Shown here: positions 1 to 33,485 of the stretch, one piece after another | How positions within the stretch are numbered: position 1 is the stretch's first letter | Layout of the letters: each line of letters starts with the position of its first letter | NCBI GenBank assembly: GCA_048213135.1 | Contig: PS015572.1 | Span: 55,945 to 89,939 of the forward strand | Source: Reclinomonas americana ATCC 50394 | Lineage: Eukaryota | Reading direction: 5' to 3' | DNA length: 33,995 nt | The notes under the pieces: generated by a model | What the model saw: the letters and a program-made list of their open reading frames with translations, nothing else | Told to the model about the DNA's origin: nothing | Databases searched by the model: none | Translations under genes and position numbers: made by a program

Positions 1-3000
1 ACAACAGGGCCATCATTGCCGGCCACCAACGGGCACTCGGCGGTGATGCTGGGGGGAGTCGGAGGGATGGCCAGTTTGACATCGCTCACTCTCTCGCCAA
101 GTGCGCCCAACGGAGGTGGCGCTGGCGCCGGAGGCAAGCTGGCTGTGATTCCCGACGCCCGACAGCCACTGATGCACCGCGGGCAAGACGTGTGCGCACA
201 GGTGAGTGCGGAGGGTGTCGTGTGTGGGGTCGCCATCACACACGCACAGACGCAGATGCACGCACACACGCGCACTGACAGCGACAGACACGCGCTCGTC
301 GCCGCGCACACACGCACACACACATGCGCATGCATACACGACAGCAGAGACGACTGTGACACACACGCATGCCCAATATGGCCAGTTGCATGCACTTTGA
401 TCACACGCTCTCTCTTTCTCTCTCTCACTCACTTTCTCTCTCTCACTCTCTCTGCACACGTGCACAGGTGGAGTTCCGCAGTCGTCAGGTGGCGTGGATC
501 GTGGCGTGTGTGGAGCGCTACCACGAAGAGAGTCGCACGTACCGAGTTCGCGACAAATTCCCGTCGGGAAAAAAGTCAAAGCAGTGGGATGTGCCGGAGG
601 ATGACGTGCTCATCTTTCCGCCTCTGGAGGCGCAGGTGGCCACGCTGGAACCCGGCAGTCGGGTTTGTTCGAAATTGTCTTGTTTTGGTCGATATATGGT
701 TGTGGACTGACATCGCATGCATGCATGCATGCATGCACAGGTGCTTGCTCTGTGGCCCAATGACGATGCGCAGACCGAGTGGACCTCTCAGTTTTACGAG
801 GCGACAGTGGTGGCCATTGGGGTGCGTGGGGGGCTGCGATGGAGTGCCAGTTTCCGATTGTTTGACTTGTCTTCTCGTTGCAGGAGCCACTGGAGCCGGG
901 CATGGTGTGTGTGCGCTTCAGGCAAACCACCGACTATATCGACATTCCAGTCAACAAACTCGTTCCTGTTGCGTGCCTCTGAGTAGCGCCCCTTGGGTTA
1001 CTCTCGACTCAAGTGTGTACCGTTGCAGGCACCCGAGTCCGTTGTCAATGCGTCCCGAGTCGACATTGCCGACCCGCTGCAAATGACGGGTGTGTCGGGC
1101 GGTCAGCTGCTCTCGGAGGGCGACTCGTTGCACACGCCGGAGCTGTTGTTGCCGTACATCGGCGTGACCTGGCAGAATCTAATGGACAGCGAGGCGCTGT
1201 TCTACGAGGTCAGTCCGTGGTAGCCGCGGAAGGGAGTGTCGCAGTTTGTCGCGCGCTGACGAGTGTTTGTTGCGCGCGACAGGTGTATCACGCGGTGCTG
1301 GCGGTGCAAGGCATCCCCATCAGTCAGGCAGTGCCTGTGGTTGGCATGCGAAACATCAATGCGTTTGTGTTCTTCCGAGAGGTCAACAAGCGCGGTGGCA
1401 TGCGCAAGGTGTGCCACGCAAGAGTCTCCGTTTCTCTGTTATGGCCTCTGCTTCTCACCACCGCGATCGGGTGGGGTGGACAGGTCATTGAGAACTCACT
1501 GTGGCCCGACATTCACTGGATGTTGAGACTGCCGAGAACGGCCACATCGTCCTCGTTTGCCCTTCGTCGGCACTACCAGAAGCTCTTGTTCCCGGTGGAG
1601 GAGCGCTACCGATGGAAGCGTGAGATCGCCGCTGTCGTGCTGCGGCGCAATCGTGGTGGACCCAAGGCTCGCAAAGAGTGCGTGTGCGTTTGCATCCCGA
1701 GAGTGTGTTCGCCAGCTGACGATTGCGTGTGCACACAACACAGTAGCACTGGAGACGACGGCGGATCGTGGGCCGGGGCAGAGGGCAGCGGACCGTCGCA
1801 GTCACCGTTACCATCGCAGCAGTCGTCGCAGACGTCAAGTGTGCGACGCGCAGCAGCGGCGGCCAGTGGCTCCATGGGGACGCCCGCGGAGGAACTCGAC
1901 GAGGAGGTGGAGCGCATCGTGGCCACCAAGTCGCTTGGTGGTGAGCGGTACTACTTGGTGAAATGGTGAGGCCATCAGTCTCGGTGTGGTTGCTGGTGTG
2001 TTACTGACGTGCTGTGCGCAGGGTCGGCATCACGGAAACATCGTGGGAGCTGTCGGCCTCGCTGCACCTCAACTGCCCGCACCTAATTGTTGAATTTTGG
2101 GAGGCCAAGGACGACGAGGTACTGTTGCTCTTGTGCGTGACCCTGCGTGTATGCGTGTGTCAACATACTGAGAATCGTGGCGACACAATGCGCAGCGTCG
2201 AATGCGCAAGCATCGCGCTCGTCATCGCGACGATGCCGTGGCGTCGGACGAGGAGGGCGAAGAGGTCACAGTTGCGCGGATCTCTCTTCCTGTGTGTGTG
2301 CACACAGGCCAACACTATCATGCCCCGCAGCAGCAGCACGCGCATCAGGTGAATTTCACGCCACCTCCACCACGTCGCACCACCTCTGGCGGCGTCCTCG
2401 ATGCTCGTCGCCGCACTCGGAACCGCACCGTGTTGGATGGTGTGTGCTCCGCAGTGACACTTGTGTGTGCGCACGGTTGCTCACCTTAATGACTGACAGA
2501 TTCGCGGAGAACTCGCCGGAGACCAGCAGGCGATTCGGTGCGTGTGACACTTGTTAGGGGAAAGCCAGTGTGTGTGCATCGATCTGTCTGACTCCCGCCT
2601 CTACAGGCACTGGACGACACGGACGACGAATCGATCATGGCCACCACGACAATGTCGATGGCGCCGTCGGGACCGGTCGGTCCGCGACCGTTTGTGTTTG
2701 ACGCAGCGCGTGTGAAGCAGTTCCGGGATGGTCTCTTCCAAGATGAATTCCAGTCGGATGATGAAATGGTCAGTGGTGGTGGTGCCGTGCTGCTGCACGA
2801 TCATGCGTGTCTGGTTTTCACACATCTTCTCTCCTCTCTGTTGTCAGGACTCGAGCTCAACGCCAGTGGAGCAGAGGATACGACAGGCGGCCATGCGCAT
2901 GCCATGGCCACCGGTCGATCGCGAGAGGGATTCACTGTTGGCCGGCCTGTGCGAGCAGCGACCACTAGTGCGCTCCAGCTCTGTGGCACTGGCACATCAG

Positions 3001-4864
3001 GGCGCGTGTGCCGCTCTGGCACTGTCGCCGGATGGTGCGCTGCTGGCGACTGCGGACTCGTTCGGAACCGTGCATGTGTATGCCGTCGGTGATGCCGGCG
3101 ACTTTTCGTTGCTGGTCGAGTACCGCGATAACGAGGTGCGGAGAAGTAGAGGAGGAATGAGTTGCTCTCTCCATGTCTTGTCACTCACTGTGGTCGGAAA
3201 ACAACAGGAGACGGAGATTGAGGAGTTCTGGACCGTGGCATTCACTCCCGACGGCTCCAAGGTCTACGCCGCCGGTCGTCGCAAGTCGCGGTTAGAATGG
3301 GACTTTGACGAAGAAGACAATCATGTTATTGCGTCTCACATCAAGGTGGGTCAAGACACATCGAGCTGCTCCTCTTCATTTTCCTGACCATGCGTCTCAG
3401 ATGTTTGACCTGGCGACCGGAGTGGTGAACACGTTGCAATTGCACAAGGAGGAGGTGTGGCGACTGTTGGTGGCCAACTTCAAGAGCCGCTGGCATCTGC
3501 TGTCGTGCTCTGCCGACGGGACGATCGTCAAGTGGCGACTGAGTCGCGACTGTGCGCTGGTGCGCGGTCGGGTGGTTTTCGACGACGACACGACGAGTGT
3601 GGTGTCGGATATGGCGCTGGTGCCGGATTGCGGCAACAAGTACCTGCTGGCCGCGTGCGACGATCGCTTCAAGATGTTTGATCTGGAGGAGGAGCGAGTT
3701 GCGTGTCAATGCACCGGTATCGCATCAGCGAGAGCGCGTGTATTGATTGACCCGGGATGTAAAATGTGTGCAGGTGATTCAGATCTTTGACGCGCCAGTG
3801 TACGGCAGCTCGGCCGATTTCGTGCAGTTTGTGTTCCCCACCGACATGAAGCTGGGCGACGGTGAATTTGCCGTTGTCACTCGTGGCGTGCCGGCGCTGG
3901 ATTCGGCGTGCAACCGTTGCGTTTCATCCTGTTTCTCGCATCAAGCGCGCGCTGTGTTGTGCTGAGAAGTTTATCTTTTTTCGCGCGACAGCTCGTGGTC
4001 CATCACAACTGCACCTCAGTGTGCTTCGCTTCCCACCGCACATGGGCCACGCTTTCTCGCTCATCCCAGTGCGCGTGTTTGAGCACGATCAGTTGAGTGT
4101 TTTTCTTGTTTCCTCGGACTCGCACGCTGCTTCTTTTTTTCCTGAAACAGTGTCGTGCAACAGATACGAATCGCTGCTGTCTCCGGTGAGACCGGCGGTC
4201 ACCAGCATGTACATTTTTGCGCCTGCAACAGCCGGGCGTGTATTTGTATGGCGCATCCTCGATGGGCGACTTTTGGGAGTAATTGACGTGAATGAGGATG
4301 AGGAAGACGTGCGAGTGGTTTTGGTGCATCCGAAGCGCGAGATGCTGTTGTGTGGAGGGGAAGGTGAGAGCGAGAAGGAGGAGAGAAATTTGCAATGGAC
4401 TTTCTCTCATGTCTGTTGCAGGCCCGTACACTTTTGCCTTGGAGCCGCAGGCTGTTGATGGCAGCTCAAGTGGCGAGGCCGTCGCCATGGACGATGATGT
4501 GACTGTGTTGCGCGCCACTCGCGCGACACAGCGTCCTGCACCTTCACAAATGCCGCCGCCACCGACGCTGCCAGTGATGACTTCCAGTGTAGGAGCAGCT
4601 GCAGCCGCCGCCGCCGCAGCAGCATCGATGGCACCTCCCCCACTACCTGCTGTCGCAGAAATGTCGATGGACAGTTTTGCGCTGCCGCCACTGCCGCACG
4701 AGGTTGGCGGTGATCGCAGTCTGCTGTCGGCGATGGAGTGGGATTCCTCGCCATCATTGCCGACGCCGACGACAACAACCACAACAACAACGACGACGTA
4801 CACTTTTGGCCTGGACGGTGGAGAATGTGTGCAATCGCCCGAGCCACCACCACCACTGCCGTAG
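1..4864 (+). CDS. Multidomain chromatin protein: SGF29-like tandem Tudor + ARID + chromodomain + WD40 repeats + Pro/Thr-rich tail (5'-partial, ~18-19 introns)
   Basis: Spliced frame gives a Tudor-like segment (LEPGSRVLALWP...TSQFYEATVV), an ARID segment (INAFVFFREVNKRGGMRKVIENSLWPDIHWMLRLPRTATSSSFALRRHYQKLLFPVE), a chromodomain (EVERIVATKSLGGERYYLVKWVGITETSWE...NCPHLIVEFWE) and WD40 repeats (HQGACAALALSPDG, HKEEVWRL...LLSCSADGTIVKW). GT-AG introns include 202-467, 663-740, 822-883, 968-1028, 1209-1282, 1409-1483, 1678-1743, 1966-2021, 2119-2195, 2440-2499, 2538-2606, 2769-2847, 3136-3207, 3346-3400, 3698-3773, 3916-3991, 4092-4163, 4364-4421. Stop TAG at 4862-4864. The junction around 2265-2307 is unresolved. 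Confidence 0.72.
715..736. repeat. Self-complementary (GCAT)n tract at the 3' end of an intron
   Basis: gcatgcatgcatgcatgcatgc lies immediately before the ACAG acceptor at 740. Confidence 0.9.
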
Positions 4865-4929
4865 GTATGATACATTGATTAGACAATAGGAGAAAAATAA
4901 CCACGACATGTACCTGTATGCTATATTAT

Positions 4930-7361
4930 TTACACGGCAGCCACTGCACGGCGAATCATCTCGTGGAATGCGACGCCTTCTCGAGCCGCCACGGCAGCGA
5001 GAGCCTCGCAAAAGTCCTCAAACTCGAGCTCCGCACCAGCCGTCGCTCGAGTCTGTGCAATGAACAGCAGATCCACATCGGCCTGGGTCATGGAGGCCAG
5101 TCGGCACTTGCCCAGCCAGCGAGTGAAGCGCGAGCGCGAGAGGCGACCGAGGCTGCGGATGCCGCAACCGCGCAAGAAGGCCTCAATCAGATCGTCTGCA
5201 GCCACGCACACCCCAACGTGAGTGGACGAATGGACTTGCGTGTGTTAACTACAGCCTGCATGCATGCAAAACGCACCGTCGGTGAGCTCGCACTGCAATT
5301 GTGGCTGCTGTGCGTCGTCGCCAGCAACGGGCAGTACACGCACGTAGCCACATGCCATGGCATCTTCGTGCTGGCGCCTGGCTGCCTTTTGCTCGTCCAC
5401 TGTCAGTCCGGCCATCTGCGTACAGTGTGAGAAACAGCGCGCTTCACGATATCGATGAACCACGTGCGTCAACACCGACCTTCTTGGGATGCATGCAGTC
5501 CACGTTGCACATGAGGAGCGCCTCGGCCAGCACCCACTGCTTAACGTACACGTCGAGAGGTGTGTCGGCAAAGAGACTGGGGCAGTGGTTGACCTCCATG
5601 AGGTGCGGTCGCAGGTGTTCGTCAAGCAGCACATCGAAGCCCATGACATGGAAGCAGTGCGCCCCACCGCTGGTGTCGTTGGGCAACGCCGCACGGTAGC
5701 GAATCAACAGCGTCGGTCGGAGTGCCAGCAGGGTGAAGCGCACGAGATCCTGCGTGTCGAGTTGGTGTGGCGCAGAGGCAAAGCGAAGAGAGCAACACCA
5801 AACTCACCTCGATACGCTGCCACATGGCCTCCGTGTCGTGTCCGCCGTCGGCCAGCAGCTGCAGCAGGTGTGTCAGATTGTCTGGACGTGCCTGCGTGCT
5901 CTGCACTCACGAAACGCATATACCTTTTCGACAGAGCTCACGGAGCTGCAGGGGTGAAAGGAGGGGGTCAATAACAGACCAGGCGCAGGGCGATGCATAT
6001 TCCTCTCCACCGTAGAAGGCCACCACTCACCGCTTGTGTCCCTGATCGTGGTGCTCCAGGTCCACATTTCCCTGGAAGCCGCCCTCATTGAACTTGTTGA
6101 GTGAGTAGTTGGTGAGGTGCATGAAGGCGAGGCGCAGATTGTCGGCCTGCGGTGCTGTGTACGGCTGTGTGATGGCGGTGAGAATTGTGAAAAGTAGGCG
6201 TGGACGCACGATTCGCATCTCACCTGTGTGGCCAGTCGCCCGAGTCCCTCGTGGTGCACAAATGCCGACAACGGCTCCAGTGAGGTGACCAGCACGTACA
6301 GGCGCATGTCGAACTTGAGGCCGTCGATGAGCAGCGGATTGGCGATGTACTCTTGCACGATGCCGCGATGGCGACTCTCGGGGATGTTACGGACGCGCTG
6401 AAACAGGTGGATGCCTGTGGCGATGGAAGAGATGAGCCGCGGTGCCGAAAGGAAGACGGAGAACACCTTGCGTGTGTGCGCACGTACCATCGCCCTGGCA
6501 GCCCTCGTCGGGCTTGAAGAGATACGTTGTCGCCGGCTCATCCGCACCTCGACGAGCGGCAGCCGCCTCACTGCGACCGACGCTCTCGCGAATGCGATCG
6601 AGTTCGTCGGGGTAGACCCAGGAGCGCGGCCAGAAGGCCATCTCATCGGGGAATCGCTCAGCAAAGCGATTCATGATGCGCGCAAACGGGGCCTTGTGCA
6701 AACACTGCCGCGATCCGGGAAACTGATTCAGCTTGCGCACGCGATGCTCGTCGCCCTCCTCCGCCAACAGCTTGCCACAATCTTGCATGCGCGTATACTT
6801 GTTAGGAACACTTGCGCAACAAGAGTCGTGTATCCGCACGCCCAACTCACCGGCGACAGCCACACCGCGATTGATAAACACGACATCGGCCTCGTGACGA
6901 TTGCGCTGACTCGCCACTCGCCAGCCCATTCGCAGTGCGCACCTGTCGATGCCATCAGTCACAGCGATGACACACCTGGAGAGAGGGAGGAAAGCGATCG
7001 CAACTTGGGCACGGAATCCATCACACAGTCGACGGCATCGAGCATGGGCGGGCGTCGCTTTCGTCGACGCAGCGTGGCCTCGTGGCGTTGCAGCAGCGCC
7101 AAGTGTCGACGATACACGGGGCGCTGAGTCACATCATCGCCCGCAGCAGCTGCAGCGATGGAGATGAGAGAGAGAGAGTGAGTGGCGATCGATGAAAGAC
7201 AACTTGAAAATGCTATTTATATAACGACTGTCGGCAATGGCGATCTCCTCGTCTGCGTCGACGCTGTCTCCGTGCTCATCGTCATCGTCGTCATCGTCAA
7301 CCACAGGGAGAGGGTGACGAGGGTGGGTGAGGGTGGGGGCGGCGGTGGCAGCCGAGGCCAT
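4930..7361 (-). CDS. Tubulin polyglutamylase, TTLL family (TTLL11-like C-terminus), ~10 introns
   Basis: TTL motifs KPDEGCQGDGIHL, VQEYIANPLLIDGLKFDMRLYVLVTSLEPL, MHLTNYSLNK and CFHVMGFDVLLDEHLRPHLMEVNHCPS. The C-terminal LSRSRFTRWLGKCRL...ADVDLLFI...FCEALAAVA resembles the TTLL11 tail as I recall it. ATG at 7361 with an acidic N-terminus. Confidence 0.88.
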
Positions 7362-7454: not shown

Positions 7455-10400
7455 TTATGCTCTGATGGGCATCAACTTCGAGCCCAATGGCGATATTTGC
7501 ATCCTCCTCCTCTTCTGTTCTTCCTCCTCCTCGTGCATCTCCTGCACAAAGGTCCACACTTGACTCGGTGATCGGATGCCCGGACACACCTTGCGCAGGT
7601 AGAGAACCATCGGAATAGTGATGGCGCAGAGGGCGCCGAGAATGGCGTACGCGTAGGTGAAGTTGTTGTTCAGCGGTCCGTTCAGCAGGGCCACCAGGCC
7701 GACTTGCACGTAATTGACAATGGCGCACACGACATTGAAGCAGCCGACGGCGCGACCGAACTGCTTCGGCGGGTAGCTGCGGGGGTGGAGAGAAGACGTC
7801 AGAGGCGGTACACGCCGTAAGGAGTAGGGAGGGTGTTGTCACGCAACATCTCCGCAAACGTCACCGTCACGCCAGCCGAAAATTGCCCTCGCAGCAACAC
7901 AAAGAGCGCGACAGTCACCATCTGGTACGACAGGCTCGGCACCATGCTGGAGAGGCAGAGGATGATGCCGACCAGTGAGATCTCGATCATGGCCACGGCG
8001 AGGCCGAAACGTCGGAACACCCAGTCGACAAGCAGAGCAGTGATGGCCACCGACGGGTAGATGATGGAGAAGATGGTGATGTAGAATTGCGCCTCGTCGA
8101 TGGAGGAGGCGAGAGTCAGGAAGAACGAGTTCAGCGTGCCCATGTAGAAGATGGTCAGCAGCGAAATCACCGAGGCCCATATTGACAGCACCAGAAACTC
8201 CGCCGAAAACAGACTGGATCTGAACGATGGCTCAGTTGAGATTTCCGCCGCAGTGATGGTGGTGGTGGTTGTGGTAGTGGTGTTATTGTTGTTGATATCA
8301 TCATTGCTGGGTTTGCGATCAGCCTCCTGCGCCTGGTGTAACACCGGAGTTGAGTGACGCATTGACTCAACATGAATACCACGCGCACAACGCAACTCGA
8401 GTCTGCGACGCCTGCCGATGCTTGAGACTCCACGAGGTGAGCGACGACAGCGATGAACCCGCCTGCAGCGTCTCCGACATGTGCTTCTTGAGATCCGGCA
8501 GCGATTTGATACGCATCGTGGCCGAGCTGCCGGAGCGACCCAACTCCCCCGTACTGCCGCCGCCAACGTGGCCCGACGATCCCACCTGCCGGGCACTGCT
8601 GCCTACGGCAAGCCTCTCGCTAGTCACCGGCTCTTCTCCCTCCTCCTCCACCTCCTCCTCGACCTCCACCTCCTCCTCGTGCACCTCTGGAATGTCGTCA
8701 AAATGCATCGGTCGCCGTTGCTCCGGGCTCTGCTGCTCTGGGCTCCGCTGCTCCGGGCTTCGCTGCTCCGGGCTTCGCTGCTCCGGGCTTCGCTGCTCCG
8801 GGCTTCGCTGCTCCGGGCTCTGCTCGATCGCCTGCAACAGGACGACATTGTCGCCTTGCCGCTCACTGCCGGCGCTCTCCTCGCGCGCCACAGTCGCCAT
8901 CTCCACATCCGTGGATGCCTTTTCCGGTGGCGGCGGCTGCGATCTGGAGCTCGACAGCGCCTCACGGTTCATGACATACGCCACATCCAGGAGCACCTAT
9001 CAATCGCCAGTCAGTGAGCGCCTCACTCCACCACTCACTCACTCTCTCAATCAACTCACCAGCAACACCACAGNNNNNNNNNNNNNNNNNNNNNNNNNNN
9101 NNNNNNNNNNNNNNNNNNNNNNNNNNNNNNNNNNNNNNNNNNNNNNNNNNNNNNNNNNNNNNNNNNNNNNNNNNNNNNNNNNNNNNNNNNNNNNNNNNNN
9201 NNNNNNNNNNNNNNNNNNNNNNNNNNNNNNNNNNNNNNNNNNNNNNNNNNNNNNNNNNNNNNNNNNNNNNNNNNNNNNNNNNNNNNNNNNNNNNNNNNNN
9301 NNNNNNNNNNNNNNNNNNNNNNNNNNNNNNNNNNNNNNNNNNNNNNNNNNNNNNNNNNNNNNNNNNNNNNNNNNNNNNNNNNNNNNNNNNNNNNNNNNNN
9401 NNNNNNNNNNNNNNNNNNNNNNNNNNNNNNNNNNNNNNNNNNNNNNNNNNNNNNNNNNNNNNNNNNNNNNNNNNNNNNNNNTGAACACCGCATACGCCCA
9501 CATGAGTTGGCTCAGCGTCAATCCAAACTGACTCGCCGCAAAGCGCAGGCCCATGCCACACACAAACGCCACCTCCCAGAACGAGCATCCCATTGCGATA
9601 ATCGTGCTCTCCCGCCCCGGAAACAGTCGCGCCACCACCAATCCCGCATAACCAATCCCGTTGCCGCCGGTTCCGAGCAGACACGCCCCGACCATGACAC
9701 ACACCGGATTGAATGGATTCACCGCCAGCAGCACCACTCCGCCCAGACACACCACTCCAAACAAGGCGCTGGTCAGACGCGCTCCGTAGCGATCCAAGAG
9801 AGATCCAATCAGCACAGTCGCCAGCATGCGCACCGAGTTGGCCACCGTGTAGGCATTCGAGTAGAACGGGAGATCCAAGCTGTCAACAATGGTGGTGAGT
9901 GAGAGACACGAATGAGTGAGCAATGAGCGCGCGCGCGAAACTCGTCCTTCTCGACTTGGAGAATGGCGACAAGCAGTGGCCATGTGAACAGCAGTCCGCA
10001 CACAAAGAAAATGGCCATCATGACTGTGCGAGTGAGTGAGCGAGTGAGACNNNNNNNNNNNNNNNNNNNNNNNNNNNNNNNNNNNNNNNNNNNNNNNNNN
10101 NNNNNNNNNNNNNNNNNNNNNNNNNNNNNNNNNNNNNNNNNNNNNNNNNNNNNNNNNNNNNNNNNNNNNNNNNNNNNNNNNNNNNNNNNNNNNNNNNNNN
10201 NNNNNNNNNNNNNNNNNNNNNNNNNNNNNNNNNNNNNNNNNNNNNNNNNNNNNNNNNNNNNNNNNNNNNNNNNNNNNNNNNNNNNNNNNNNNNNNNNNNN
10301 NNNNNNNNNNNNNNNNNNNNNNNNNNNNNNNNNNNNNNNNNNNNNNNNNNNNNNNNNNNNNNNNNNNNNNNNNNNNNNNNNNNNNNNNNNNNNNNNNNNN

Positions 10401-11059: not shown

Positions 11060-13350
11060 ATGTCGACGTCGTCGTCGTCGGCGTCGCCTGTGTCCTCGTC
11101 ACCGCCGTCGCCTGGCTCACCAGCGGCTACTGCTGCGGCTGCGGCTGCGGCTGGTGGTGTGACAGTGGTCTCACAGAGTCCACCACCACACCCGCACCAC
11201 TTTCATCACATGCTTCCTCCTCCTCCACCTCCGCCGCCTCCGCCTCCACCTCCACCTCCACCGCCTTCATCGGCTGCCAAGAATGAGTTTGGCGCGGGAA
11301 GAGCGGCTGGCGCAGGTGGACCACCACTGGTCGCAGAGATGAGCCCGAGCAAGAAGCGAGTTTCGTTGTGCTCACTGACACAACAGCGATGATGATGATG
11401 ATGATGGTAGCGATGATGATGGTCTTATGGTGATGTGTGTGAGCAGTACTCGTCGCTGGATAAGCTGGGATGTGATTTGCGGGCGTTGGTGAACTCGCGA
11501 GACTTTTCGGATATGCAGATCCTGGCGGGTCCGGAGCGTGTGCTCTTGTATGCGCATCGGTGCATTCTCTCGCAGCGGTGTTCGTACTTTCAGGCGTGCT
11601 TGTCGGGCGGCTGGGCCGAGTCGTCGAATGGTGTCATTGAGAAGCCGAACACGTGTGCCGAGGTGTTTCTGCTGTTGCTCACGTTTCTGTACACGGGCGA
11701 GGTTGCGTCGTGTCGTCGTCCCACCAGCGCGCGCAAGTCATCTCACTGTATTTGAAATAGGTGGAGATCGAGGAGAGCACGGCGTTCGATCTGCTGGCGG
11801 CGGCCGATGAGCTGCAAATAACAGACCTGCGGATGCACTGCACGTCGTACATTCGGGAGACCATGAATGCCGACAATGTGTTTCTGTATCTGGTGCGCGC
11901 GCGCGCGTGTGTGTGTGTGTGTGTGTGTAAGTAGCTCGCGCAGGGCGAATGGCTGACCTGTTGTCGGTGGCAGGAATCCGCCGGGCGTCATCATGTGGAC
12001 GAACTGAAGGACGGCTGCATGAAGTGGATTGTGGAGCATGCCGAGGGCGTGTTCACCTCGGAGTCGTTCCTGTCGATACACCTGGACACGCTGGCATACC
12101 TGCTGCAGAACGACGACATGGAGATTGAGGAGGATAATGTGTGGAGGGCAGTACTGCGATGGGGAATGTTGCGTGGCGAGTCGTGCGTTGTCGCCTCCTC
12201 GTCGTTGTTCTAATCGTGTACTGCAGTCACAACTGTCAAGTGCACGGCGCACTGCCGTCACAGTGGACAGCCGACGAGCGGGAACGGTTGCGGCAGACAC
12301 TGGCTCACGTGTTCCCTCACATTCGCGTGTTGCGGATTTCGGGCGAGTGCTTTGTCGACGAAGTCGAGCCGACACAACTCATGCCAGTGGAGCTGCGACT
12401 GGAGCGCGGACTGTTGCGTGGATTACGGCATTACTACGCCTGTACAAGGTTTCTCACCTTTGGCATCCAATGCAGGTATGCCATGGCGCCCCAAAAGTAC
12501 CCCGAATCACACCCACTTCTGCGACCCAGAGGGCACGCCACCAAGGTCAGTGTGTGTGTGTGCTTGGCGTCGAGCCACTCACTTACCTTCTGCCATTCGT
12601 GCGTGCTGACTGGGATCTCGTTACTCGCAGTTCCGGTGGGACACGCAGATGAAGGCTCCGCACTGCGCCGTGTCGCCCGACGGCAAATTAATCACGCTGA
12701 GCCTGCAGGGCACAGCAACCACGTTTGTGGAGGAGCCTGTATTTAAGGGTGCGTGCAGGGAGAATGAGAGATGGGATTCCCCTGCGCACGGAGACTGATA
12801 TGGGTGGAGCAGGCAAGCAAACGATTCACATCAAGGTTGAAAATATCCCCGTGCGCACGGCATACTATGTGGGCATTGCGCTGGAGAAGAACGAGCAGAC
12901 GGTGTCACGGTCATTGCGGGACGTGGGCTGGGGTCTGCAGGGTGCGTTCCTCCGACCCCCTGCGTGTTCACGGATGACGTGGGATAGAGCGCTGAAACAA
13001 CTCTTTCTGTGTTCGTGCAGACAACGGGCGGGGTGTCATGCACGGCGGTGAGTTCCTGAATCAGGAACACGGCGGGCGTGGGATTGTGTACAACACGGGT
13101 GATGTAGTGTCCATGTCCGTCGACAAGGACAATGGCGTTCTGTCGTACCAGGTGAGCGGGCACGCGGGCGAAAGGAGTCCACTCTCGGCTCATTGTTGTC
13201 CTCCCACAGATCAATGGAGATCAGGTCGTGCAGGTGACGATCGAGGATATTAAGCACTCGTCAGCCGTCCACATGGGAGTGACGATGTACAACATGGGGG
13301 CCTCGATGAGGATTCTCGACACGTACATGCCCAACCACCATGAACGCTGA
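11060..13350 (+). CDS. BTB/POZ-BACK protein with C-terminal SPRY-like domain and polyproline N-terminus, 9 introns
   Basis: BTB segment FSDMQILAG...LYAHRCILSQRCSYFQACLSGGWAES...LLTFLYTGEV. BACK segment FLSIHLDTLAYLLQNDDMEIEEDNVWRAVLRWG. SPRY-like YYVGIA...YNTGDVVSMSVDKDNGVLSYQING. Stop TGA at 13348-13350. Confidence 0.85.
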
Positions 13351-13511: not shown

Positions 13512-15576
13512 TCAACGGCGTGCCGCCGGCTGAACGCGCTTGGCCGACTTTTCCAGGAGCTCCAGGTAAACCTGTGCGTGCAGGCATCAGTACTTGGAAT
13601 ACGACAAGGAGTCAGCGACAGCGAATGGACCTCAGCGTGCGGCTTTTCAAACACCAGCATGGGACGCAGGCGTACCGACTGCGCACCGCAACCGCCGGCC
13701 ATGACACCTGTGGACGGGCAGTGGTCAGCACCCAGTCGACCACATAATGGCGCACGGCACACTATGCACGATACCATTCTGGCGCAGCTCAGCCACCAGC
13801 GCGTCGCGAATCTCGGGCGAGGCCGAATCAAAGGCCAAGAAGGTGCCGGAGCCGCGCGTGTTGGCCACCACGTTGGGATACTTGCGCTGTGGGGGGAGAG
13901 AAGTCGTGAGATGCAAGGCTGGTCAAATGCACAGCTGGCGGCAGCACACGCACCGACAGCGCCTCCAGCTGCTCCTTCAGGAACTGGCCAGTGGCGGCGG
14001 TCTTCTCCACCAACTTGTCGCGCTTGATCACCTGCACCACAGTGCGCAGCTGCAGCGCGCGAATGGGATCTCCCATCCACGTGTTGTACTGGCGGTAGGT
14101 CTGGAAACGCGACGTATTTGCAATCAGCAAGTGCGCACACGCGGAGAGAGAGAGGGGCCGCACGCATCACGAGAGCACGCAACGTCACTCGGGCGGTACT
14201 CCATGTTGTGGTAGAAGCCGGCCGCTTGCATCTTCTTGGAGAATGTCACCATGTCCTGCATTCACACAATGTAGTTCAGTTCCACTCTCTCTCTCTCCCT
14301 TTCGTCCCCCCATCCGCCCCACTCACCGGCGGCGATGGCAGCTTCCACGCCTCGTGAGCCCAGAAAGTACCGGTGGCTCCGCAGCCAGTCTGCACCTCGT
14401 CCACGATAAAGGTGACGCCGAGGCGCTTGGTGATCTCGCGCAATCGGCAGAAGAAGTAGTTCGACGCGTGATTGTCGCCACCCTCGGACTGCACCGGCTC
14501 GACGATCACGGCGGCCACTGGCACGTGCCACGTAGCAATGAGGCGCTCGACCTGCGTGCATTCGGTGAGTGAGAGTGCATGCAACAACAGACAAAAAGCA
14601 CAGCACCGACCTCCTGCAGACAGCGGTCCTCCTCCATTCGATTCTCGGTCTCGTACTGCGACAGCGGGTACCGGAGTCGCGGGAATGGGGCAGCCGGCCA
14701 ATCAAACGCCGGCACGTCGACCTTGTGAATGGCCTTGGAGCGCGTCGTGCTCAGGCAGCCAAACAACCGGCCGTGGAAGCCGCCCATGAAGCTCAGCACG
14801 CTCAGATTCGGCGAGCCTGCACCATCGCAAGTCAGCGGGTCACACGGAAGAGGCAAGAGCGACAACGCAGTGAGGCACACACCCGGTGGCGAGTTCGACA
14901 TGCACGACTGCAGATCCTCCTCGGTGATCGGGTGCCCGTTGCGCTGCCGGTTCATCCAGAACATGAACGCGGCCTTGTAGGCGGTCTCGTTCGCGCACGA
15001 GCCACACATGGCCGTAAACACGTTCTTCAGACCCGGAGGTGCCACCTACAACACACGGTTAAGCGCACCGGCATGTCCGCGCAACGATTCTTCGCTGCAA
15101 TGCACCTCCATGAAGCTGTCGCGCAGCAGCTGCGGCCAGTACTCCGGCGGATTGACGCCCAGCGCCGGTCGATTGATGAGCGCCGTAACCCACTCATCCG
15201 AGCGCGCGGCCTTGACCAGCTCCGGGTGATTGTAGCCAATTGGCAGCGAGGCAATCTGGCAGAAGGTGTCGAGCAGCATGTTCCCGTCGGCATCGCACAG
15301 GTAGTTGCCGGTGGAGGCCGAGTAGTTGGCGAAGAACGGCTGCATGCGGGCCTCCTGCAGCTGCGAGAGCGAGTCGCGGAGGGCCTTGGTGCGCTCGCCG
15401 GGCACGACGCTCGTGCGGAGAACAGGGCGTGCGGGCTCGTTGGGCCACACGGAGGAGGCGAACCAGCGGCATTGCGCGGTGAGACGCGCGCGGTGTCTCA
15501 CTGTGTGTGTGTGGCAATGAGGTAAGTATGTGAGAGGCAGGCGAGGCGAGGGGAAGAAGGGCGCACCGATTTGCAT
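13512..15576 (-). CDS. ABAT: 4-aminobutyrate aminotransferase (GABA transaminase), mitochondrial, eukaryotic type, 9 introns
   Basis: Motifs [103 protein letters not shown] (PLP lysine) and NTWMGDP. Arg-rich presequence; first coding exon is only 10 nt. Confidence 0.95.
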
Positions 15577-19943: not shown

Positions 19944-22489
<2,546 letters not shown>

Positions 22490-23749: not shown

Positions 23750-24947
23750 CTATACTCCATTGACCGCCGTGGGCAGTGACGATGGTGGCGGTAGTTGCCG
23801 ATTGTTGCGCGCGCTGTTGGAGGACAACAGAATGTCGCCGCCCCAGTACCGCTCGAACCGTGGATCCGCCCACGCGACGGCAATCATCGGTCCCAGTGTG
23901 CACGGCACGAGGTACAGCAGCGCCGGCTGCGCCGCACTGGTCATGTAGACTGCCAGGAACGAGAGCAACAGGCCGCCCATGTAGCCGGTGAGTGCCCACA
24001 TGAAGAAGCCCTCGATGCGATACCACGGCCGACCGACGGCACAATCGTAGCGCAGCGCCAGGCACACCAGCATGCCCGGCATCACAATGTCGCCGAGTCC
24101 CAGCATGGAGAAGCCGTCGCCACGCGGGAACAGCAGCTTGATGGGCAAGTCGACTTGCGTCGCCACCGTCACCATCACATTCTTCCCAAACACCGGCTGC
24201 GAGTAGAACACCCAGAAGATGTCGTACACAAACAGCGCCGACAGCAGCAGCGAGGCCACCTTCAGACTCGGCAGGCGCAGAAAGGCAATCGTCGACACAC
24301 ACATGGCCATGCCGAGCACTGGGGAGTCAAAGGCGGGGCGGGTCAGAAGTACAACTAAACACAGCCGGTTTGTGGCTTACGAAACGATTGTTGATCACCC
24401 AATGCCCACTGGTGGACCACCACAGCGCCAGTGCGAGGACCGCCACACACATGGCGACTACATCCAGCGCAGAGCACGAGCACCAGCCTCCACATCGCTG
24501 CGATTGCGCATCACTGCCTCCTCCGTTCGGTATCACAACGCTCTCCGATACAACTGATGACGATGACGATGACTGAGGGAAGCACCACAGTTGTGCCAGC
24601 CACGGATGCACACAAAAGGCGACGGCAAAGGCCGACGAGAGCATGAAACACGCCGTCAGCACGACAATCGCCGTCGACACAAAGTAGAACAAGACGAGCA
24701 GGACCACAGAGGAGACAAGTGGCAGCACAATCGCCGATCGCAGAGACAGACTGGCGATGCCTGTGAGAGACAGTGTGTGTGTGTGTGTGTGAGAGAGACT
24801 GCAGTTGTCGATGACTGAGCGCCACTTGTCAAAACCTTTCTGCTCTTCGGATTCCCCTGGCATCTCATCGAGTGCTCTTGCGCGCAGTGAGCCGTAGAGG
24901 ATGGTCAGCGTTGCACAAGCCATGACCACGAACAAGTTCGACTCCAT
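23750..24947 (-). CDS. Signal peptide peptidase-like aspartyl intramembrane protease (SPPL3/SPP family), 2 introns
   Basis: Catalytic YD (LFVYDIFWVF), GxGD (FSMLGLGDIVMPG) and QPALLYLVP motifs. Also HWVINNLLG and LPIKLLFPR. Confidence 0.93.
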
Positions 24948-25031: not shown

Positions 25032-28000
25032 ATGTCGTCGCTGCTGCATGTGCTCGAGTCCGAGCTGAAGCACGTCAGCAGCGAGTCGCGACGCAAGCTG
25101 CCCAATGTCAAAGAGGTGCGCGTGTGAACGAACATGAACGAGCCATTTCCTCTCTCTCACTCACGCTCACTCGCTCGCTCTCACAGGCCGCTGATCGTGC
25201 ACTGGTGGAGGTCAAGCGACTGGCCGACAGTCTGCACGGACAGCCGCTGGATGCGATCGTGCAAGGTGTGTGTGTGTCTCTGAGTCTCTGTGTTCATTGT
25301 GAGTGTGACTGATGAAGGTCTTGGCAGCAATCCGCGATACCTCGGATGTGTACTCGCCGCTCATCCTCGCCACGCTCTCCAACAACACCAAGCTGGTGCA
25401 GTCGGCGCTCGGGTGCCTGCAGAAGGTCCTGTCGCACGGCGGCGTGGCCAAGGTTTGAGTGCTCACACTCCACTCATCACGCACACGTGTGTGTGTGTGT
25501 CGCTGACTCTCTCTCCATCTTGTAGCGCGACCTGCCGGAGGTGCTGGAGGCTGTCATGCACCAGAGCGACTGTGGAGAGGAGATTGTGCAGCTCAAGGTC
25601 ATTCAGACGCTGCTGACGGTGATGACATCGCCGTCGTATCACTTGCCGGATGCGCTCTTGTCGGGGGTTGCGTCGTTGCTGCGTGCGAGGAAAGCGCACG
25701 GGCCTTGTGTTGCTGATGCCTTTTATTGCGTTTGTGTGCAGTGCTTGCGAGTGTGCTTCCTGTTGCATCGCAATCGCAGTCCGATGATTCACCACACGGC
25801 GGCGGCGACGGTGCGACAGGTGGTCAACCTGTTGTACGATCGCCTGGAGCAGTCGATGAACACGGACATTGCGTCGTCGCCAGACCCAGCTGCAGCGGAA
25901 AAGCTGCTGGAGGATCGTCGTCGCACCGGGTACTTGTTCTTCCAGGATCTGCTGAGTCTGGTCGACGGCAAGAGTGGCGACTGGCTGAGCATGCGACCGG
26001 GAGTGCTGAATCTGCGCTTTGGTATCGAGCTGTTGGAGTTGGTGTTGTCGCATCCGGTTGCTTTGAAGGTCAGTGTGAGCGCGCGTTGTGTGCGATCGGG
26101 CAGTCGGCGGAGTCGACTCACGTGGGGGAGTGCAGGAGGAACCGTTCTTGCCGACCATCGCGTACCGCCTGAGTCCGTTCCTGCTCTCGTCGATTCGCAG
26201 TCAGATGAGCGACTTTGGCAATCTGGTGCGCCTCATTCGTGTCGGCGTCGTGCTGATGACGCACTACACGCAGTACATTGTTGCGTGGCGTGCATCACGC
26301 GTGTCATTATTTGTTGCTTGTGTTGTTGTCTCACTCGCCGCTGCGTGCGCAGCCGGAGCAAACGCGCGACTTTTTCGACTTTCTCACGAAAATGGCCAAC
26401 GGCGACTACGAGCGCAGCGTGCTGGTGTGGCCGTGCGTGCTGGCAGTGGACGCACTGCGTTGCATGTTGAAGATTCCGCGCATGGCCGAGTTTCTGTTCG
26501 AGACATTCGACATGGGGCGGGCGAATCGGCCGTCGGCGGTGTTTGGCTGCCTGGCCAACGCCATTGGTAGCTTTGTGAAGCGCATCTACGAGTCGCAACC
26601 GGGACCGATCACCATTAGCTTGCAGACGAAGCGATTTGGCGGGTGAGTCGAGCGCTTGAACACTGTCGTGTAACGGCGACTCACGCGCTGCACACTGTAG
26701 ATTGGAATTGCTGAATGACACGGATATCATGGCGCCGGGAGTTTTGGTGAATGCCGAGAGCGCACTGTTCCTGGGTCTGGAGGCGGTCTCGCTGGTGGTG
26801 GAGTCGTATTCTCGCACTTGTGGATTGCTGGAGACGTTGGATAATCCGACGAGTGGCAGCACGCCGTCGTCGCCGACTCTGGCTCGCACCGAGCCACCGG
26901 GAACACCGTCGGGCTCCATGGTGAGATTACGCAGTGGGTGGTGTTGGTGGGAGGACGAAACTGACTTTTTGGATGGTCTCATCAGTCGCAACTGTTGGCT
27001 CGTTCCCTTTCGACGCTCGCTGCCGACATGGTGCCGTTGCGCACCGATGCTGTGGCAGCCGAGGTGAGTGCTGTGATTTGCATGACTGCTCGTGGCAAGG
27101 GCATGTGCTGATCTGTACCTTGCTACAGCCTGCGTCTGGCTCTGGTGCTTCAGGCTCGGGTGTGTCGGCTCGTCCAGACGACGCCGTTGCGTCTGTTGTG
27201 CCACTCTCGCTCTATCATCAAGCACCACAGTCTCTGATCCTCATTTGTTCGCTTTTCAGTCACAGACAGTGGCTTCTGCGCCGCCTGGCAGTGGAAACGA
27301 GGACTCCAGCTTGTCGGAGCCACCGACGGGTGTGGAGTCGGTGTGTTGGCTTTCCTTGTTATTCTCAGGTTTTGTTGTTGCCTTTCTCTCATCCTCCCGT
27401 GCGTGCAGTCGGCTGCCGACGACACGGAGGAAGCAGACAGTGATCCTGTCTCTCTGCTGATCCGGCGCTGTGTGGAGGAGGCCGTGCGGCGTGGTATCTC
27501 CATGGCCATTTCGTCGACTGGCCCCATGCAGCCGTCGTCTCGCGGTGCAGACGCTACGGACAGTGAGGGTCACGATGCGCTGACGGAGGACCAGGATATG
27601 GCCGACGGCGATGCGGGTGCTGGCATTGAAGATGTGGAGCAGGACAGTGATGAGGATCAGCGCGGCTCACCCGTGCCCGACGAGGCTGCCGCTGTGGAGA
27701 CGGAACAGGTATGATTTTCCTCCGTCTCACTCTCCCTCTTTGTAACCAGCGCTGATTCGCGTCGAGACGCAGGACGTGTCTACGCCGTCACGCCCCGCTG
27801 CACCCAAGGTTGACGCGCCGTCGCCACTGCAGCTGACGCCGTCGGCAGCCACCGACGAGGGCGGTCGCAGCCAGTCCGACCTTGCAGGATCGTCGTCGTC
27901 GTGGGAGACGCCGTCGAATCTCGGCAAGGGACCGGAGTTGCTGCGGATTCACTCAAAGACCAAGGACGAGGACATTTCGGTGAGCGCTGGCTGATTCTGG

Positions 28001-31000
28001 ATGTGAGGCAGGAGATGGGTTGTGGTGGTCTCATGGCCTTGCGCGCACGCAGCTGTGCAAGAAAATGGTGGAGTCGAGCTGGTGGTCGCTGCTCGCAGCC
28101 ATTGGCAGTCTGCTGGAACGCACACGCAACGAGGAGATTTTGTCGTCGGTGCTCCGCCTGTACCACGTGTTCATTCACGTGTGTGGAGTGACGGGTCTGA
28201 CGCAACCTCGTGATGCGTTGCTCACGTCGCTGTGCCGGTGCGTCGTGCAGGAGAGCGAGTGCTGTCGAGTGCAGTTGTCTGACTTGAGTGTGCGCGCAAC
28301 AGCTTCACGCTGCCAGTGTCGGAGGATCCGCGTCCGGAGGATGATGCCGCGGTGGGCACGGAGAAGGGAGTGATGACCCCGAAGAATGTGCAAGTGATGA
28401 AGGTATGATGTCTTTTCCTTGTACGCCTTTGCTAGCTTTGTCTGACAGCTGTGACGTGTCGGTGACAGGCACTCTTCAAAGTGGCCATCAAACTCGGCTC
28501 GCTCCTCGGCAGCTCGTGGTACCTGCTGTTGAAAAACTTGCAGCAACTCGACACGCTGCTGTATCCGGTGATGCCGAGTCAGCAGGCGGTGAAGGGCGCC
28601 AACGAGGGTACCACGCAGGAGCTGTCGGTACGTGTGTCTCTCGCTGGCGAGTAGGATATCATCTCTCGCGGTTATCTCATCGTCGTCGTGCATGCAGATT
28701 TTGAGCGACTCGCTTGCCACACTCTTCTCCAAGAGTGTGGACCTCGACGAGGAGGCACTCGTGCACTTGTTGCTGGCACTGACGCAATTGTCGGCCGACA
28801 CACTCACCTCGCCTTCGTTCAAGCTCATGTCGTCGACGGTACGTTTGTGTGTGCGTGCAACCTGATTCGCACGCTGTCTGTGATCTCCTCATGTGATCAC
28901 CGCAGGCACCTCGCATGTTTGGCACGAGCAAACTGGTGGAGACCGCCAAGTACAATGTGCACCGCATCGGCAACATCTGGGAGTTCACAACACAGCACCT
29001 GGTGTCTGTGGCACGACACGATGTTTCGTGATTGTTGTTGTTGTTATTGATTGTGTGCCTCCTTGGTCGCTCACTGCGAACAGAATGCCGCTGTGCGCGC
29101 CTTCGCCGTGGAGAGTATGGGAGCCATTGTGCGCGCCACGCTTGCCGACCCCAACAATGCGCACATGGAGGAGGTTGGTGTTGTGGGCGTCGGTTCTGTG
29201 GGCCGCTTGTGCGAGCACCATCTGAGCGTGTTCGTGTGTGAGCAGAAGGCATTGATTCCGTTCCAGCGGCTGTTTGAGAATGTCGAGTTCCCGGATCTGC
29301 ACGAGAATCTGCTGACGCAACTGAGCAGCATCATTCGCAGTGTTGGGCCGGTGCGTTTGGGGAGGGCAGATGACTGTGATGTGGCTTTTCCTCAGCTCAC
29401 CCGGCTTTCGATTGTGCGCAGCAATTGACCACGAGCTGGGAAATCGTGCTGCAAGTGCTCTCACAAGTCGGCAAGGAAGGCCGCCGCAACGAGATTCTGA
29501 TTGGATGGGAGAGCATTCAGCTGATTGTGACCGACTATGCCAACAAGTTCCCCACTGTTTGTGCGTCGGCTGGTGAGATGTATCGTATTGATCATGAAAC
29601 TCACCCACTGTTCGTTTCTCGTGCAGCCAATCTGCTGATGCTGATCAAGGTCGTTGGGAGTTTCTCGCACCAGCGCGAGGAAGTCAACATTGCGCTGTCC
29701 TCCATGAACTTTTTGTGGAACCTCTCGGATTTGCTTGCGTCGCGTGTCTCGTTGCGTCGTCAAAATGGGGTGTGGCTCCCACACAACATTCGCTGACAGA
29801 CCACGCAGGGCTGGCGCGCCGGAGATCCGCGCATTGTGGCAAGTGCTCTTTGCCGAGCTGCAAGTGAGTTCGTGGGACAACCGACCGGAGGTGCGTCACT
29901 GCGGCATTCGCACCGTGTTCTCCACGGTGGTGCGCCATGGCGCCGGATTCAGCGAGGAGCTGTGGACCGAGTGCTTGTTGGCCGTTGCGTCGACGATTCG
30001 CGTTCCTGGTGACGCGCTGCTGCTCACCCTTCTCTTTCCCGCACAGATTCTCATCCCTCTTGTCAAGCAAGTGGAGATGTTTGCCGATAGTGCGTCGGAG
30101 GAGGAAGAGCCGGAGGATGGCAGTGGTCAAATGTTGCGTTTGTAAAGAGACTATATTGTACTCAGTTTCTCTTGTGCCTCACACTCTATGGATGCAGTAT
30201 GAAGCACTGGAGTCGCAACTCGGCGGCGAAGCAGTGGGATGAGACTCGCGCAGTGGCACTGGCTGGGGTCACGCACATGTACAAAATGCTTTATGTGCAT
30301 CTCAGGTACGTGTGCGAGGCGAGAGCGAACGGGTGAGTGTGTGGGTGAAGTAAGTTACTCATTTCATGTGCGCAGCAAATTGGAGTGTTTTGCGGAGAGC
30401 ATTCAGCTGCTCACCGAGCATGCAGCGAACGGTGTGTTGCATCCGGCCAAGGATGTGCACAGGGTTGCGTCGCTCGAGTGCAGCTTGGTTGTCGCAATCG
30501 ATTCTTGCCATTCATGTTGCATTTGTGTGCCAGATTGCCATTCGCGGTGTGCTCGACATGCTGCTCAGTGCCAATGAAGCCGAGGCTGGACAGCCGGCAT
30601 CGGAGTCGTTGATGGTGGTGTGGAAGTTGGTGTGGCACATCTGGGAGGCTTTGGCGGCGTACCTCTCGCTCACTCCGTGCAGTTGCGCAATCTCCCTGCT
30701 TTGCGTCGTCGCCCTCTGTTGACTCACGCCGCCTTGTCGGACGCAGGTGCGGGGAAGCCGCGAAGTGTGCTGGAGGCATTGACACCGATTGTGTCGGTGC
30801 AAAAGGCCTTGCAGCGCGGCACGAAGAACAACCCCGACCTTGTGAAATTCTTTATTAATGGTGTGAAGGAGGCGTACGAGCTGATGCGAGGCCGCTTTAC
30901 CAGTCCAGATTGTGTTCGGTGCGTGCTCGCGCGTGTAGGTGCATCATTTACAGTCCACGATCTGATATTGCTTCACACAGGTTGATATCCATTCTCAACA

Positions 31001-32311: not shown

Positions 32312-32409
32312 AATGGCAGCAGGCGTGAGAGAGGAATGAGAGATGGAGAAATGTAACAAGTGTGTCTCGCATTGGTTTACGTTGTCGTGCAGTGTGTTCT
32401 ATTGTGTGC

Positions 32410-33485
32410 TCAGTCTATCACGTTAACCACCGGCCGCCATTCGCTCTCCGGCGCCTCGTACAGGAAAAATCGGTAGAGCGCATCGAGTGCGGCCTCCTGT
32501 TCGCTTCTCGTTACGGTGGTGCCGGCACCCTGACCAAGGAACGTGTTCCCATTCTCGACGACCGACACGAACGGTGGCCCCTCGCTCAGCCTTCGGTACA
32601 CCGGTTTGGGGAGACCGAGACGCCAGCTCAGCAAGAACAGGTCGCGCTTCGGTTCGTGGACGGGCACAAAATCGCGCAGGTACAAGTGCTCCATGTCCTG
32701 TGCGACACACGAACAGCGTGAGGTCGACGAGGCACGGGAGGGAGTGAGAGACAGCGCATGCACAACTCCTCGCGGCGACTCGCGGTACCGCCTCATGGCG
32801 ACCGCATCGAGCTCGCTGGCATCCGGTCGCCTCCCCGCAATCAATCGCACCGGCATCAGCACGTGCGGCCACACCAGTCGCCTGAACGCCTCCTCGGGGC
32901 CCAGATCGCGACACGTCGCGGCCGCCAAACACTCAAACAGATTCGCCACCGTCTTGGACGCCGGTTCCATGCGCGATGCCGCCACACCGGCTCGTGGCTG
33001 CAACGATGTGAGCAACAAATAAGGGGGAGAACGCCGAGCTGTACGACGCGCACCTCCCAGTCTCGCGAACAGTAGCTGGTCAAGTCGTCGAGGCCAAGTA
33101 GTCGTCCTCGTGAGACAAGCCACACGTTACTGGTGAACTGACTGCGCACGTGGGAGGAGAAAGGTTGTCAGCTGTCGACTGAATGCAGAGCAATGTAGTG
33201 ATAAAGAGCACGAAACGATGTGAGACTGTGGATGGTGCCAGCTGGCATATTGGGAAACCGCTTGAAAAAGTGCTCAGTGATGGACATGGCGAGGAACTTG
33301 TCGCCTGTGCAATGCATGCAAGGAAAGAGTGAGATGTGCGTGCATTCTCTCTCTTCCGTTTCTTCTCTCACACACAAACCGAGAAACTCCAGACTTGAGT
33401 TCTTGGCGGCCTCGGCAGCTGCACGTGCAGTGCTCACAGGGAAGCCGAGACGACCGCTGACGACTGTGCGGAAGGCGCGCTGCAT
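32410..33485 (-). CDS. RNase III-domain + dsRBD protein, probable mitoribosomal protein mL44, 4 introns
   Basis: Presequence-like MQRAFRTVVSGRL, RNase III segments NSSLEFLGDKFLAMSITEHFFKRFPNMP and VANLFECLAAA, and a dsRBD EPKRDLFLLSWRLGLPKPVYR...GQGAGTT...EQEAALDALYRFFLYE resembling fungal mL44 C-termini as I recall them. Confidence 0.75.

Follow-up and report, generated by a model that had tools for sequence, protein, structure and literature searches.

How does a spliceosome find its cutting point when the genes it serves carry two kinds of 5' splice site (donor) whose conserved cores lie one nucleotide out of step with each other? The question is raised by a 33,995-base stretch of Reclinomonas americana ATCC 50394 DNA (contig PS015572.1, positions 55,945 to 89,939; hereafter the window), in which a first-pass annotation had listed 32 donors beginning GTT[G/T][C/A/T]G, mostly GTTGCGT, here called the GTT class, alongside ordinary donors of the GTGCGT type. 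Our analysis supports the GTT class as probably real and frequent donors with a conserved G at +6 instead of +5. Junction calls rest throughout on DNA and protein homology. A protein-to-genome spliced aligner was allowed any GT...AG of 38-400 nt and was given no donor matrix. A donor-agnostic gene finder, based on dynamic programming, scored codon usage, the acceptor and branch-like motif, and intron length, and required of the donor only GT; a gene finder that was given the GTT class beforehand (the class-aware model) yielded 105 modelled introns. A gene model without splice signals was too noisy, and one bootstrapped on heptamers reinforced its own singletons.

The motif was found at all 32 listed donors on the strand assigned to each (23 plus, 9 minus), and all 32 carry G at +6 rather than +5, just as had been claimed. 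The exact heptamer GTTGCGT, the commonest single one, occurs at 19 of them. Both strands of the window together hold 25 copies of this heptamer, compared with a hand estimate from base composition of ∼5, and their orientation is strongly biased: 21 are sense to a gene, 3 are antisense and 1 is intergenic (binomial p=2.8e-4). Listed donors account for 19 of the 21 sense copies. Two unlisted sense copies, at 19946 (+) directly upstream of the glutamate dehydrogenase (GDH) coding region and at 17865 (-) within the 3' portion of the HAD gene, may be extra donors (of a 5' untranslated region or a last intron). The full degenerate pattern was recovered at 16 of the 97 donors called by the donor-agnostic finder, whereas among all 4217 GT sites it is present at 124 (2.9%; p=2.6e-8). 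That finder hit the exact position of 15 listed donors and misplaced the other 17, mostly to an in-frame GT 9-21 nt off within the same intron.

The originally proposed share of ∼28% (32 of ∼114 introns) proved sound, with GTT-class donors making up 13 of 38 homology-supported donors (34%) and 27 of 105 modelled introns (26%). They thus represent about a quarter of donors, spread over 12 genes. In the union of donor-agnostic and homology-supported donors, GTTGCG is as frequent as GTGCG (15 versus 16). The 13 supported donors that match the pattern include an unlisted GTTTTGT donor at 20456 (+), chosen by 13/13 GDH homologues.

Homology support, in the form of spliced alignment, Pfam continuity or spacing, or a restored J-domain, was obtained for 14 of the 32 listed donors, and at these sites removal of the GTT-class introns restores both the reading frame and a conserved protein; the remaining 18 are known from gene models only or were not reproduced. 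Of 13 GDH homologues, all chose 22175 and all chose 22363, and seven chose 21616; in two printed alignments the junction at 22363 has no gap and that at 22175 has at most one, two residues upstream. Among the homologues dissenting at 21616, four placed a 114-nt intron from 21484 and read through, and two preferred a second GTTGCGC, in frame and 18 nt inside the intron at 21634 (+), which may be a tandem alternative donor. The GABA aminotransferase donor at 14183 was picked by 11 of 12 homologues, with a gap-free junction. Alignments of 14 distant MON2 homologues were noisy; despite this, six GTT sites were locally the most-chosen or joint most-chosen donor: 25667 (10), 29023 (8), 26280 (6), 29751 (5), 29984 (5) and 30133 (4). 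The last of these tied, 4 versus 4 (3+1 by acceptor), with a GTAAAGA at 30142. Three further MON2 donors were weakly supported (30464 and 30682 by 2/14 each, 27186 by 1/14).

Protein profiles from Pfam run on across three junctions. The BTB profile covers positions 4-75 up to the end of the exon before 11702 and restarts at 77 with residue 2 of the next exon. The MON2 DCB profile extends to 132, six residues short of the end of the 25667 exon, and restarts at 139 with residue 1 of the next, while the profile of Peptidase_A22B gets to 112 in the codon overlapping donor 24385 and restarts at 113, again with residue 1. Furthermore, the 86-nt MON2 exon between the 29984 and 30133 introns fits a gap of ∼28 positions in the Mon2_C profile. 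In the DnaJ gene, a 14-nt micro-exon (16115-16128, +) lies between two GTT-class introns, whose donors are 16045 and 16129, and excising both introns gives back the helix III motif, in keeping with the earlier claim that a J-domain motif is restored. The exon that follows aligns weakly (E=0.66), from its first residue onward, to residues 55-96 of DNAJA1. None of the gene-model runs found this micro-exon. Exon-level Pfam scans of DnaJ exons 3 and 5, of the BACK continuation and of the RNase III continuation returned zero matches, as did a PDB search with DnaJ exon 3. The WD40 gene had no homologues at E<=1e-5, which leaves 3698, 3916 and 4092 without homology support.

The two donor classes differ on the exon side of the cut. 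Among homology-supported donors the last exon base (position -1) is G at 22 of 25 ordinary sites versus 3 of 13 sites of the GTT class (Fisher p=1.3e-4), and across all listed GTT donors it is G at 3 of 32. A similar difference is seen among donors with a perfect core (GTGCG 12/16 versus GTTGCG 2/15; p=9.7e-4). On the intron side, the 32 GTT-class sites carry G at +4 (27), C at +5 (29), G at +6 (32) and T at +7 (25), and the 25 ordinary donors carry G at +3 (13), C at +4 (13), G at +5 (21) and T at +6 (19). The GTT-class preferences from +4 to +7 therefore mirror the ordinary ones from +3 to +6 with a one-base offset, and are the tighter of the two. Donors that have T at +3 and retain G at +5 (21464, GTTCGT; 22000, GTTTGT; 25453, GTTTGA) also retain G at -1. 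Two GTTTTG donors, 20456 (+) and 24835 (-), fit the GTT-class pattern and have G at +6, yet keep G at -1, as ordinary-register sites do.

The first-pass annotation had worded the class as the ordinary consensus with one extra T. The one-base offset stands, but the inserted T does not, since an insertion would predict a retained G at -1 and that G is lost (3/13 versus 22/25). The simplest description of GTTGCGT would be G/GTGCGT (the slash marks the cut) with its second G changed to T and the cut made one base earlier. The loss of the G requirement at -1, which would fit a role for G+1 as the partner of C9 in U1, a small nuclear RNA (snRNA), is a new point here.

In other respects the two sets of introns look alike. 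Between the 27 GTT-class introns and the 78 others in the class-aware model, median length (69 versus 70 nt), G+C content (0.548 versus 0.555), the presence of a branch-like YTVAY 8-45 nt from the 3' end (25/27 versus 70/78), the median distance from that motif to the 3' end (19 versus 17.5 nt) and the use of CAG acceptors (26/27 versus 68/78) are all similar. Every one of the 27 ends in CAG or TAG, all 32 listed donors start with GT, and the gene models bear out the earlier statement that the class occurs in all three phases. An all-against-all blastn of the 105 intron bodies gave 227 short hits, of which the first 30 inspected were 11-24 nt and low-complexity-like. These features suggest that GTT-class introns are ordinary GT-AG spliceosomal introns in which the donor alone differs.

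Supported donors outside the two main words are very degenerate. In the GABA aminotransferase and GDH stretches (13514-15576, -, and 19950-22487, +) they include GTCCAT, GTCGGT, GTGCAT, GTATCG and GTAAAT. Because these degenerate donors almost always keep G at -1, much of the signal of ordinary introns seems to lie in that exon-side base.

We consider it about an even bet, and the most likely mechanism, that a single reader docks at a one-base offset from the cut site at GTT-class donors. The local signal can be read as a seven-base word, G-N-T-G-C-G-T, in which N is G or T. Where N is G, the only GT would begin at the second base and the cut would fall after the first G (G/GTGCGT, the ordinary class); where N is T, a GT would begin at the first base and the cut would come one base earlier (/GTTGCGT). 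The likeliest reader would be the 5' end of U1 snRNA, docking identically on the word in both cases, so that a single U1 could serve both donor classes. In the GTT class, G+1 would then lie opposite U1 C9, in place of the last exon G, and U+2 would be mismatched with C8. The GU that is actually cut would be fixed later by U6 and U5. U1 pairing was calculated with the textbook 5' end, which may not be that of this organism; on this basis GTT-class sites average 6.2 pairs in the +1 register versus 4.2 in the canonical one, with the shifted register better at 26 of 32 sites, whereas ordinary sites average 4.6 versus 7.3 and favor the canonical register at 22 of 25. Among the mechanisms offered in the first-pass annotation, the lost preference for G at -1 favors a shifted U1 register over a bulged U at +2/+3.

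Several observations weigh against this reading, or against parts of the donor list on which it is built. The frequency of G at -1 in the GTT class (3/32) is at background level (G precedes 15-21% of all GTT or GT sites) and is not significantly depleted; active depletion of that G was accordingly rejected. Two ordinary GTGCGT donors, 21833 and 29561, also lack G at -1, a hint that a perfect intron side could relieve the need for it. Nearest-neighbor duplexes with the textbook U1 average -1.7 kcal/mol for the GTT class, -2.9 for random GT sites and -6.3 for ordinary donors, and the area under the curve (AUC) for GTT donors against background is 0.31. Standard U1 also leaves the near-invariant C at +5 (29/32) unexplained in any register, because that base faces a U1 pseudouridine in every one. 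The exact junctions were placed by means of protein homology and reading frames, and the evidence comes from a single 34-kb window. Lastly, 3916, 8396, 12168 and 33216 were picked by the class-aware model only, a support that is circular because the model already knew the class, and none of the gene models reproduced 968, 4092, 20102 or 27186.

The poor pairing of GTT sites with the textbook U1 end means that a modified or second U1 stays a live rival, either as two U1 variants, one for each donor class, or as a single co-evolved U1; the altered recognition sequence could also be that of U6. Random GT sites pair better with the textbook end than GTT donors do; when U1 positions 4-7 were varied in 256 hypothetical ways, GTT donors were separated from background only by versions complementary to GUUGC (AUC 0.81); and the heptamer is unusually tight, with 19/32 exact, although a tight consensus is equally expected where a single U1 compensates for a mismatch. 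There is precedent in the co-evolved U1 of Entamoeba and Mastigamoeba, described in sections of Roy and Bowser (bioRxiv 10.1101/2022.06.08.495308), and, by analogy with an archamoeba, this organism's U1 could present a G to the conserved C. Against this, sections of the same preprint give standard U1 ends for other lineages with C at +4, Mamiellales and Thecamonas, and the two intron classes here are otherwise indistinguishable. Overall we rate a dedicated or modified snRNA as rather unlikely. A bulge would differ from the shifted register in that G+1 and U+2 would pair normally with U1, and later with U6, one U of +2/+3 would bulge, and pairing would resume at GCGU. The downstream pairing would be the same, so the mirrored motif fits equally well; sections of Tan et al. 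2016 (PMC4856993) describe validation of this register at a few human sites; U6 would need such a bulge anyway for pairing with the conserved G; and compensation by a perfect core for a missing G at -1 is conceivable from 21833 and 29561. However, the -1 base would still face C9, and the expected G preference is seen neither among supported donors (3/13) nor among perfect cores (2/15). Because C9 would still seek that G, the bulged register is disfavored and appears unlikely.

Two other explanations were weighed. Modelling could have produced the class if the true donors were nearby canonical GTs and the motif were enriched through codon or repeat bias, and in-frame alternative GTs within 9-21 nt are indeed compatible with an open frame (968/950, 29023/29002, 30133/30142, 30464/30455). 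Yet homologue alignments choose the GTT site itself in 13/13, 13/13 and 11/12 cases for three donors, Pfam profiles run on across junctions, the motif is biased to the sense strand (21 versus 3), and the alternative GTs share no recurrent motif; such an artefact is very improbable. Even less credible to us is a distinct intron family, made up either of U12-type introns whose signals have been transformed or of introner transposon copies. Both kinds typically show a 5' heptamer that is sharply conserved. In U12-type (minor) introns the donor resembles RTATCCTT, and a branch site resembling TCCTTAAC lies near the acceptor; GTTGCGT is unlike that donor, and branch-like motifs, spacing, length and acceptors equal those of the other introns. 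Blastn of the 105 intron bodies shows no family among the first 30 of 227 hits, which were short and low-complexity-like. Both the minor-spliceosome and the introner candidates were rejected on these grounds. A further reading, that two donor-recognition modes coexist on the major spliceosome, through either two U1 types or one co-evolved U1 working in two registers, is doubtful but was retained. If it were true, the cut would be uncoupled from docking for a quarter of introns, a natural example on the scale of a genome of U1 marking the site and U6 and U5 choosing where to cut.

What is known of shifted and bulged U1 registers stems from reporter experiments and a few dozen splice sites in human genes; they are regarded as exceptions, and to our knowledge splice-site predictors ignore them. 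Shifted-register 5' splice sites of human genes were reportedly described by Roca and Krainer in 2009. Parker et al. (2022) are said to have distinguished two complementary classes of 5' splice site, one strong on the exon side and one on the intron side. The trade-off here resembles that model, as the GTT class lacks G at -1 but has a tighter intron core; in addition, the core on the intron side is shifted by one nucleotide here, which the model would not predict. In sections of Tan et al. 2016 (PMC4856993), the shifted register has the U1 pairs displaced by one, with G+1 in the place of the last exon G and the cut kept at GU. The donors described here share with such human sites the GUU start, the conserved G at +6 and the cut at GU. 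They differ in frequency, as roughly one donor in four across 12 genes is of this kind whereas human cases are rare, and in having GCGU, which pairs poorly with textbook U1, where the human core is AAGU. For the bulge at +2/+3, the same sections put the number of predicted sites at 68 in a set of 201,541 human donors, of which 54 survived curation, and curated non-canonical registers combined amount to 2.1% of human donors. In human bulge sites, too, one additional U separates the GU from the core that pairs, but the share here is 26-34% and the G preference at -1 is absent. In 12 neighboring genes, such a share is of a different order from the human registers.

Among microbial eukaryotes, sections of the Roy and Bowser preprint (bioRxiv 10.1101/2022.06.08.495308) describe GUUUGU donors with a co-evolved U1 in Entamoeba and a Mastigamoeba U1 whose changes include a G as the partner of C at +4. 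T at +3 in the donor signal is shared with Entamoeba, where it is genome-wide; as those sections present them, however, Entamoeba and Mastigamoeba each have one transformed consensus in the normal register, unlike the two classes offset by one base seen here. The preprint's sections on lineages with GYGCGY donors or C at +4, namely Mamiellales (green algae) and Thecamonas, report a preference for C at +4 with standard U1 kept. Ordinary introns here, in which GTGCGT goes with a branch motif like CTSAC, resemble those signals. Unlike the present window, those genomes are intron-poor, and the sections on them mention no GTTGCGT class. The first-pass annotation knew of no genome with this frequency of such donors, and a search of open-access papers found none, although the genome's own paper may describe the class.

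The coordinates of the 32 listed donors, with the gene and the evidence for each, are given in the table.

Table. Listed GTT-class donors and introns of the window, by strand, with the evidence for each.
Position	Strand	Donor and gene	Evidence
968..974	+	GTTGCGT candidate, SGF29/ARID region	not reproduced; agnostic model takes in-frame GT 950, same intron
3698..3773	+	GTTGCGT intron, WD40 gene	donor-agnostic model
3916..3922	+	GTTGCGT candidate, WD40 gene	class-aware model only; acceptor uncertain
4092..4098	+	GTTGAGT candidate, WD40 gene	motif present; no model reproduced it
11360..11446	+	GTTTCGT intron, BTB-BACK gene	donor-agnostic model
11702..11760	+	GTTGCGT intron, BTB-BACK gene	BTB profile continuity; donor-agnostic model
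12168..12226	+	GTTGCGT intron, BTB-BACK gene	class-aware model only
12413..12475	+	GTTGCGT intron, BTB-BACK gene	bootstrapped and class-aware models
16045..16114	+	GTTGCGT intron, DnaJ gene, upstream of micro-exon	sequence reading, J-domain motif
16129..16192	+	GTTGTGT intron, DnaJ gene, downstream of micro-exon	sequence reading; weak DNAJA1 match
20102..20161	+	GTTGCGC candidate, GDH N-terminal region, not conserved	not reproduced; models favor GTGCGTG 20062, same acceptor
21616..21681	+	GTTGCGT intron, GDH	7/13 homologues; donor-agnostic model
22175..22242	+	GTTGCGT intron, GDH	13/13 homologues
22363..22438	+	GTTGCGC intron, GDH	13/13 homologues
25667..25741	+	GTTGCGT intron, MON2	10/14 homologues; DCB profile continuity
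26280..26352	+	GTTGCGT intron, MON2	6/14 homologues, plurality here; donor-agnostic model
27186..27192	+	GTTGCGT candidate, MON2, poorly conserved part	1/14 homologues; models take neighboring GTs
29023..29083	+	GTTTCGT intron, MON2	8/14 homologues
29751..29808	+	GTTGCGT intron, MON2	5/14 homologues, their acceptor 9 nt earlier; donor-agnostic model
29984..30046	+	GTTGCGT intron, MON2	5/14 homologues; Mon2_C profile spacing
30133..30197	+	GTTGCGT intron, MON2	4/14 homologues; Mon2_C profile spacing
30464..30533	+	GTTGCGT intron, MON2	2/14 homologues; class-aware model
30682..30746	+	GTTGCGC intron, MON2	donor-agnostic model; 2/14 homologues
6943..7004	-	GTTGCGA intron, tubulin-tyrosine-ligase-like (TTL) gene	donor-agnostic model
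7777..7847	-	GTTGCGT intron, MFS-like gene	donor-agnostic model
8333..8396	-	GTTGCGT intron, MFS-like gene	class-aware model only
9880..9941	-	GTTTCGC intron, MFS-like gene	donor-agnostic model
14101..14183	-	GTTGCGT intron, GABA aminotransferase	11/12 homologues, gap-free junction
17968..18137	-	GTTGCGA intron, HAD hydrolase gene	bootstrapped and class-aware models; HAD profile stops at exon end
24319..24385	-	GTTTCGT intron, signal peptide peptidase	Peptidase_A22B profile continuity
32698..32766	-	GTTGTGC intron, RNase III/dsRBD gene	donor-agnostic model
33210..33216	-	GTTTCGT candidate, RNase III/dsRBD gene	Ribonuclease_3 match ends at exon end; class-aware model; acceptor uncertain

For the intron at 32766 an open frame alone is no proof, because the intron is itself in frame and without stops. 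A CTCCCT-type microsatellite fills the 170-nt HAD intron, and introns throughout the window commonly contain (GT)n and (CT)n runs. In the DnaJ gene, a 44-nt intron (15928-15971, +; GTACGC...TAG), below the usual 60-80 nt, was identified by sequence reading only.

The window has ∼59% G+C, contains five runs of N, and is crowded on both strands with eukaryotic genes whose introns are short and number ∼10 per gene. Pfam scans of open frames and modelled exons identified genes for SGF29-Tudor and ARID, WD40, TTL-like, MFS-like, BTB-BACK, class-III aminotransferase, DnaJ, HAD hydrolase, GDH, signal peptide peptidase (SPP), MON2 and RNase III/dsRBD proteins; the nearest solved structure to the aminotransferase is mitochondrial GABA aminotransferase. 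Among named proteins the top matches come from fungi and animals, with no near-identical protein on record, and scanning metagenomes with an exon of the GABA-aminotransferase gene turned up 80 loci, 47-73% identical, none of them a close relative. At gathering thresholds, Rfam detected no RNA family, snRNA included, within the window. An assembly gap (N run, 20753-20869) lies within the GDH gene and hides ∼40 conserved residues; the aligner's 'introns' beside it (donors 20658 and 20881) are probably gap artefacts. The last exon of the TTL-like gene (4933-5193, -) shows a weak match (E=0.007, below the Pfam cut-off) to p25-alpha (tubulin polymerisation promoting protein), and two tubulin-related domains may have been fused in this gene.

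The finding is of interest for research on splice-site recognition and has a practical consequence for the annotation of this genome: gene finders trained on just one donor matrix will overlook or misplace roughly one in four of this organism's introns. If the pattern holds genome-wide, R. americana would offer a natural system in which to study how far U1 docking and the choice of cut site are separable, would show how U6 handles an extra nucleotide between GU and the pairing site, and would provide a test of snRNA co-evolution with donor signals.

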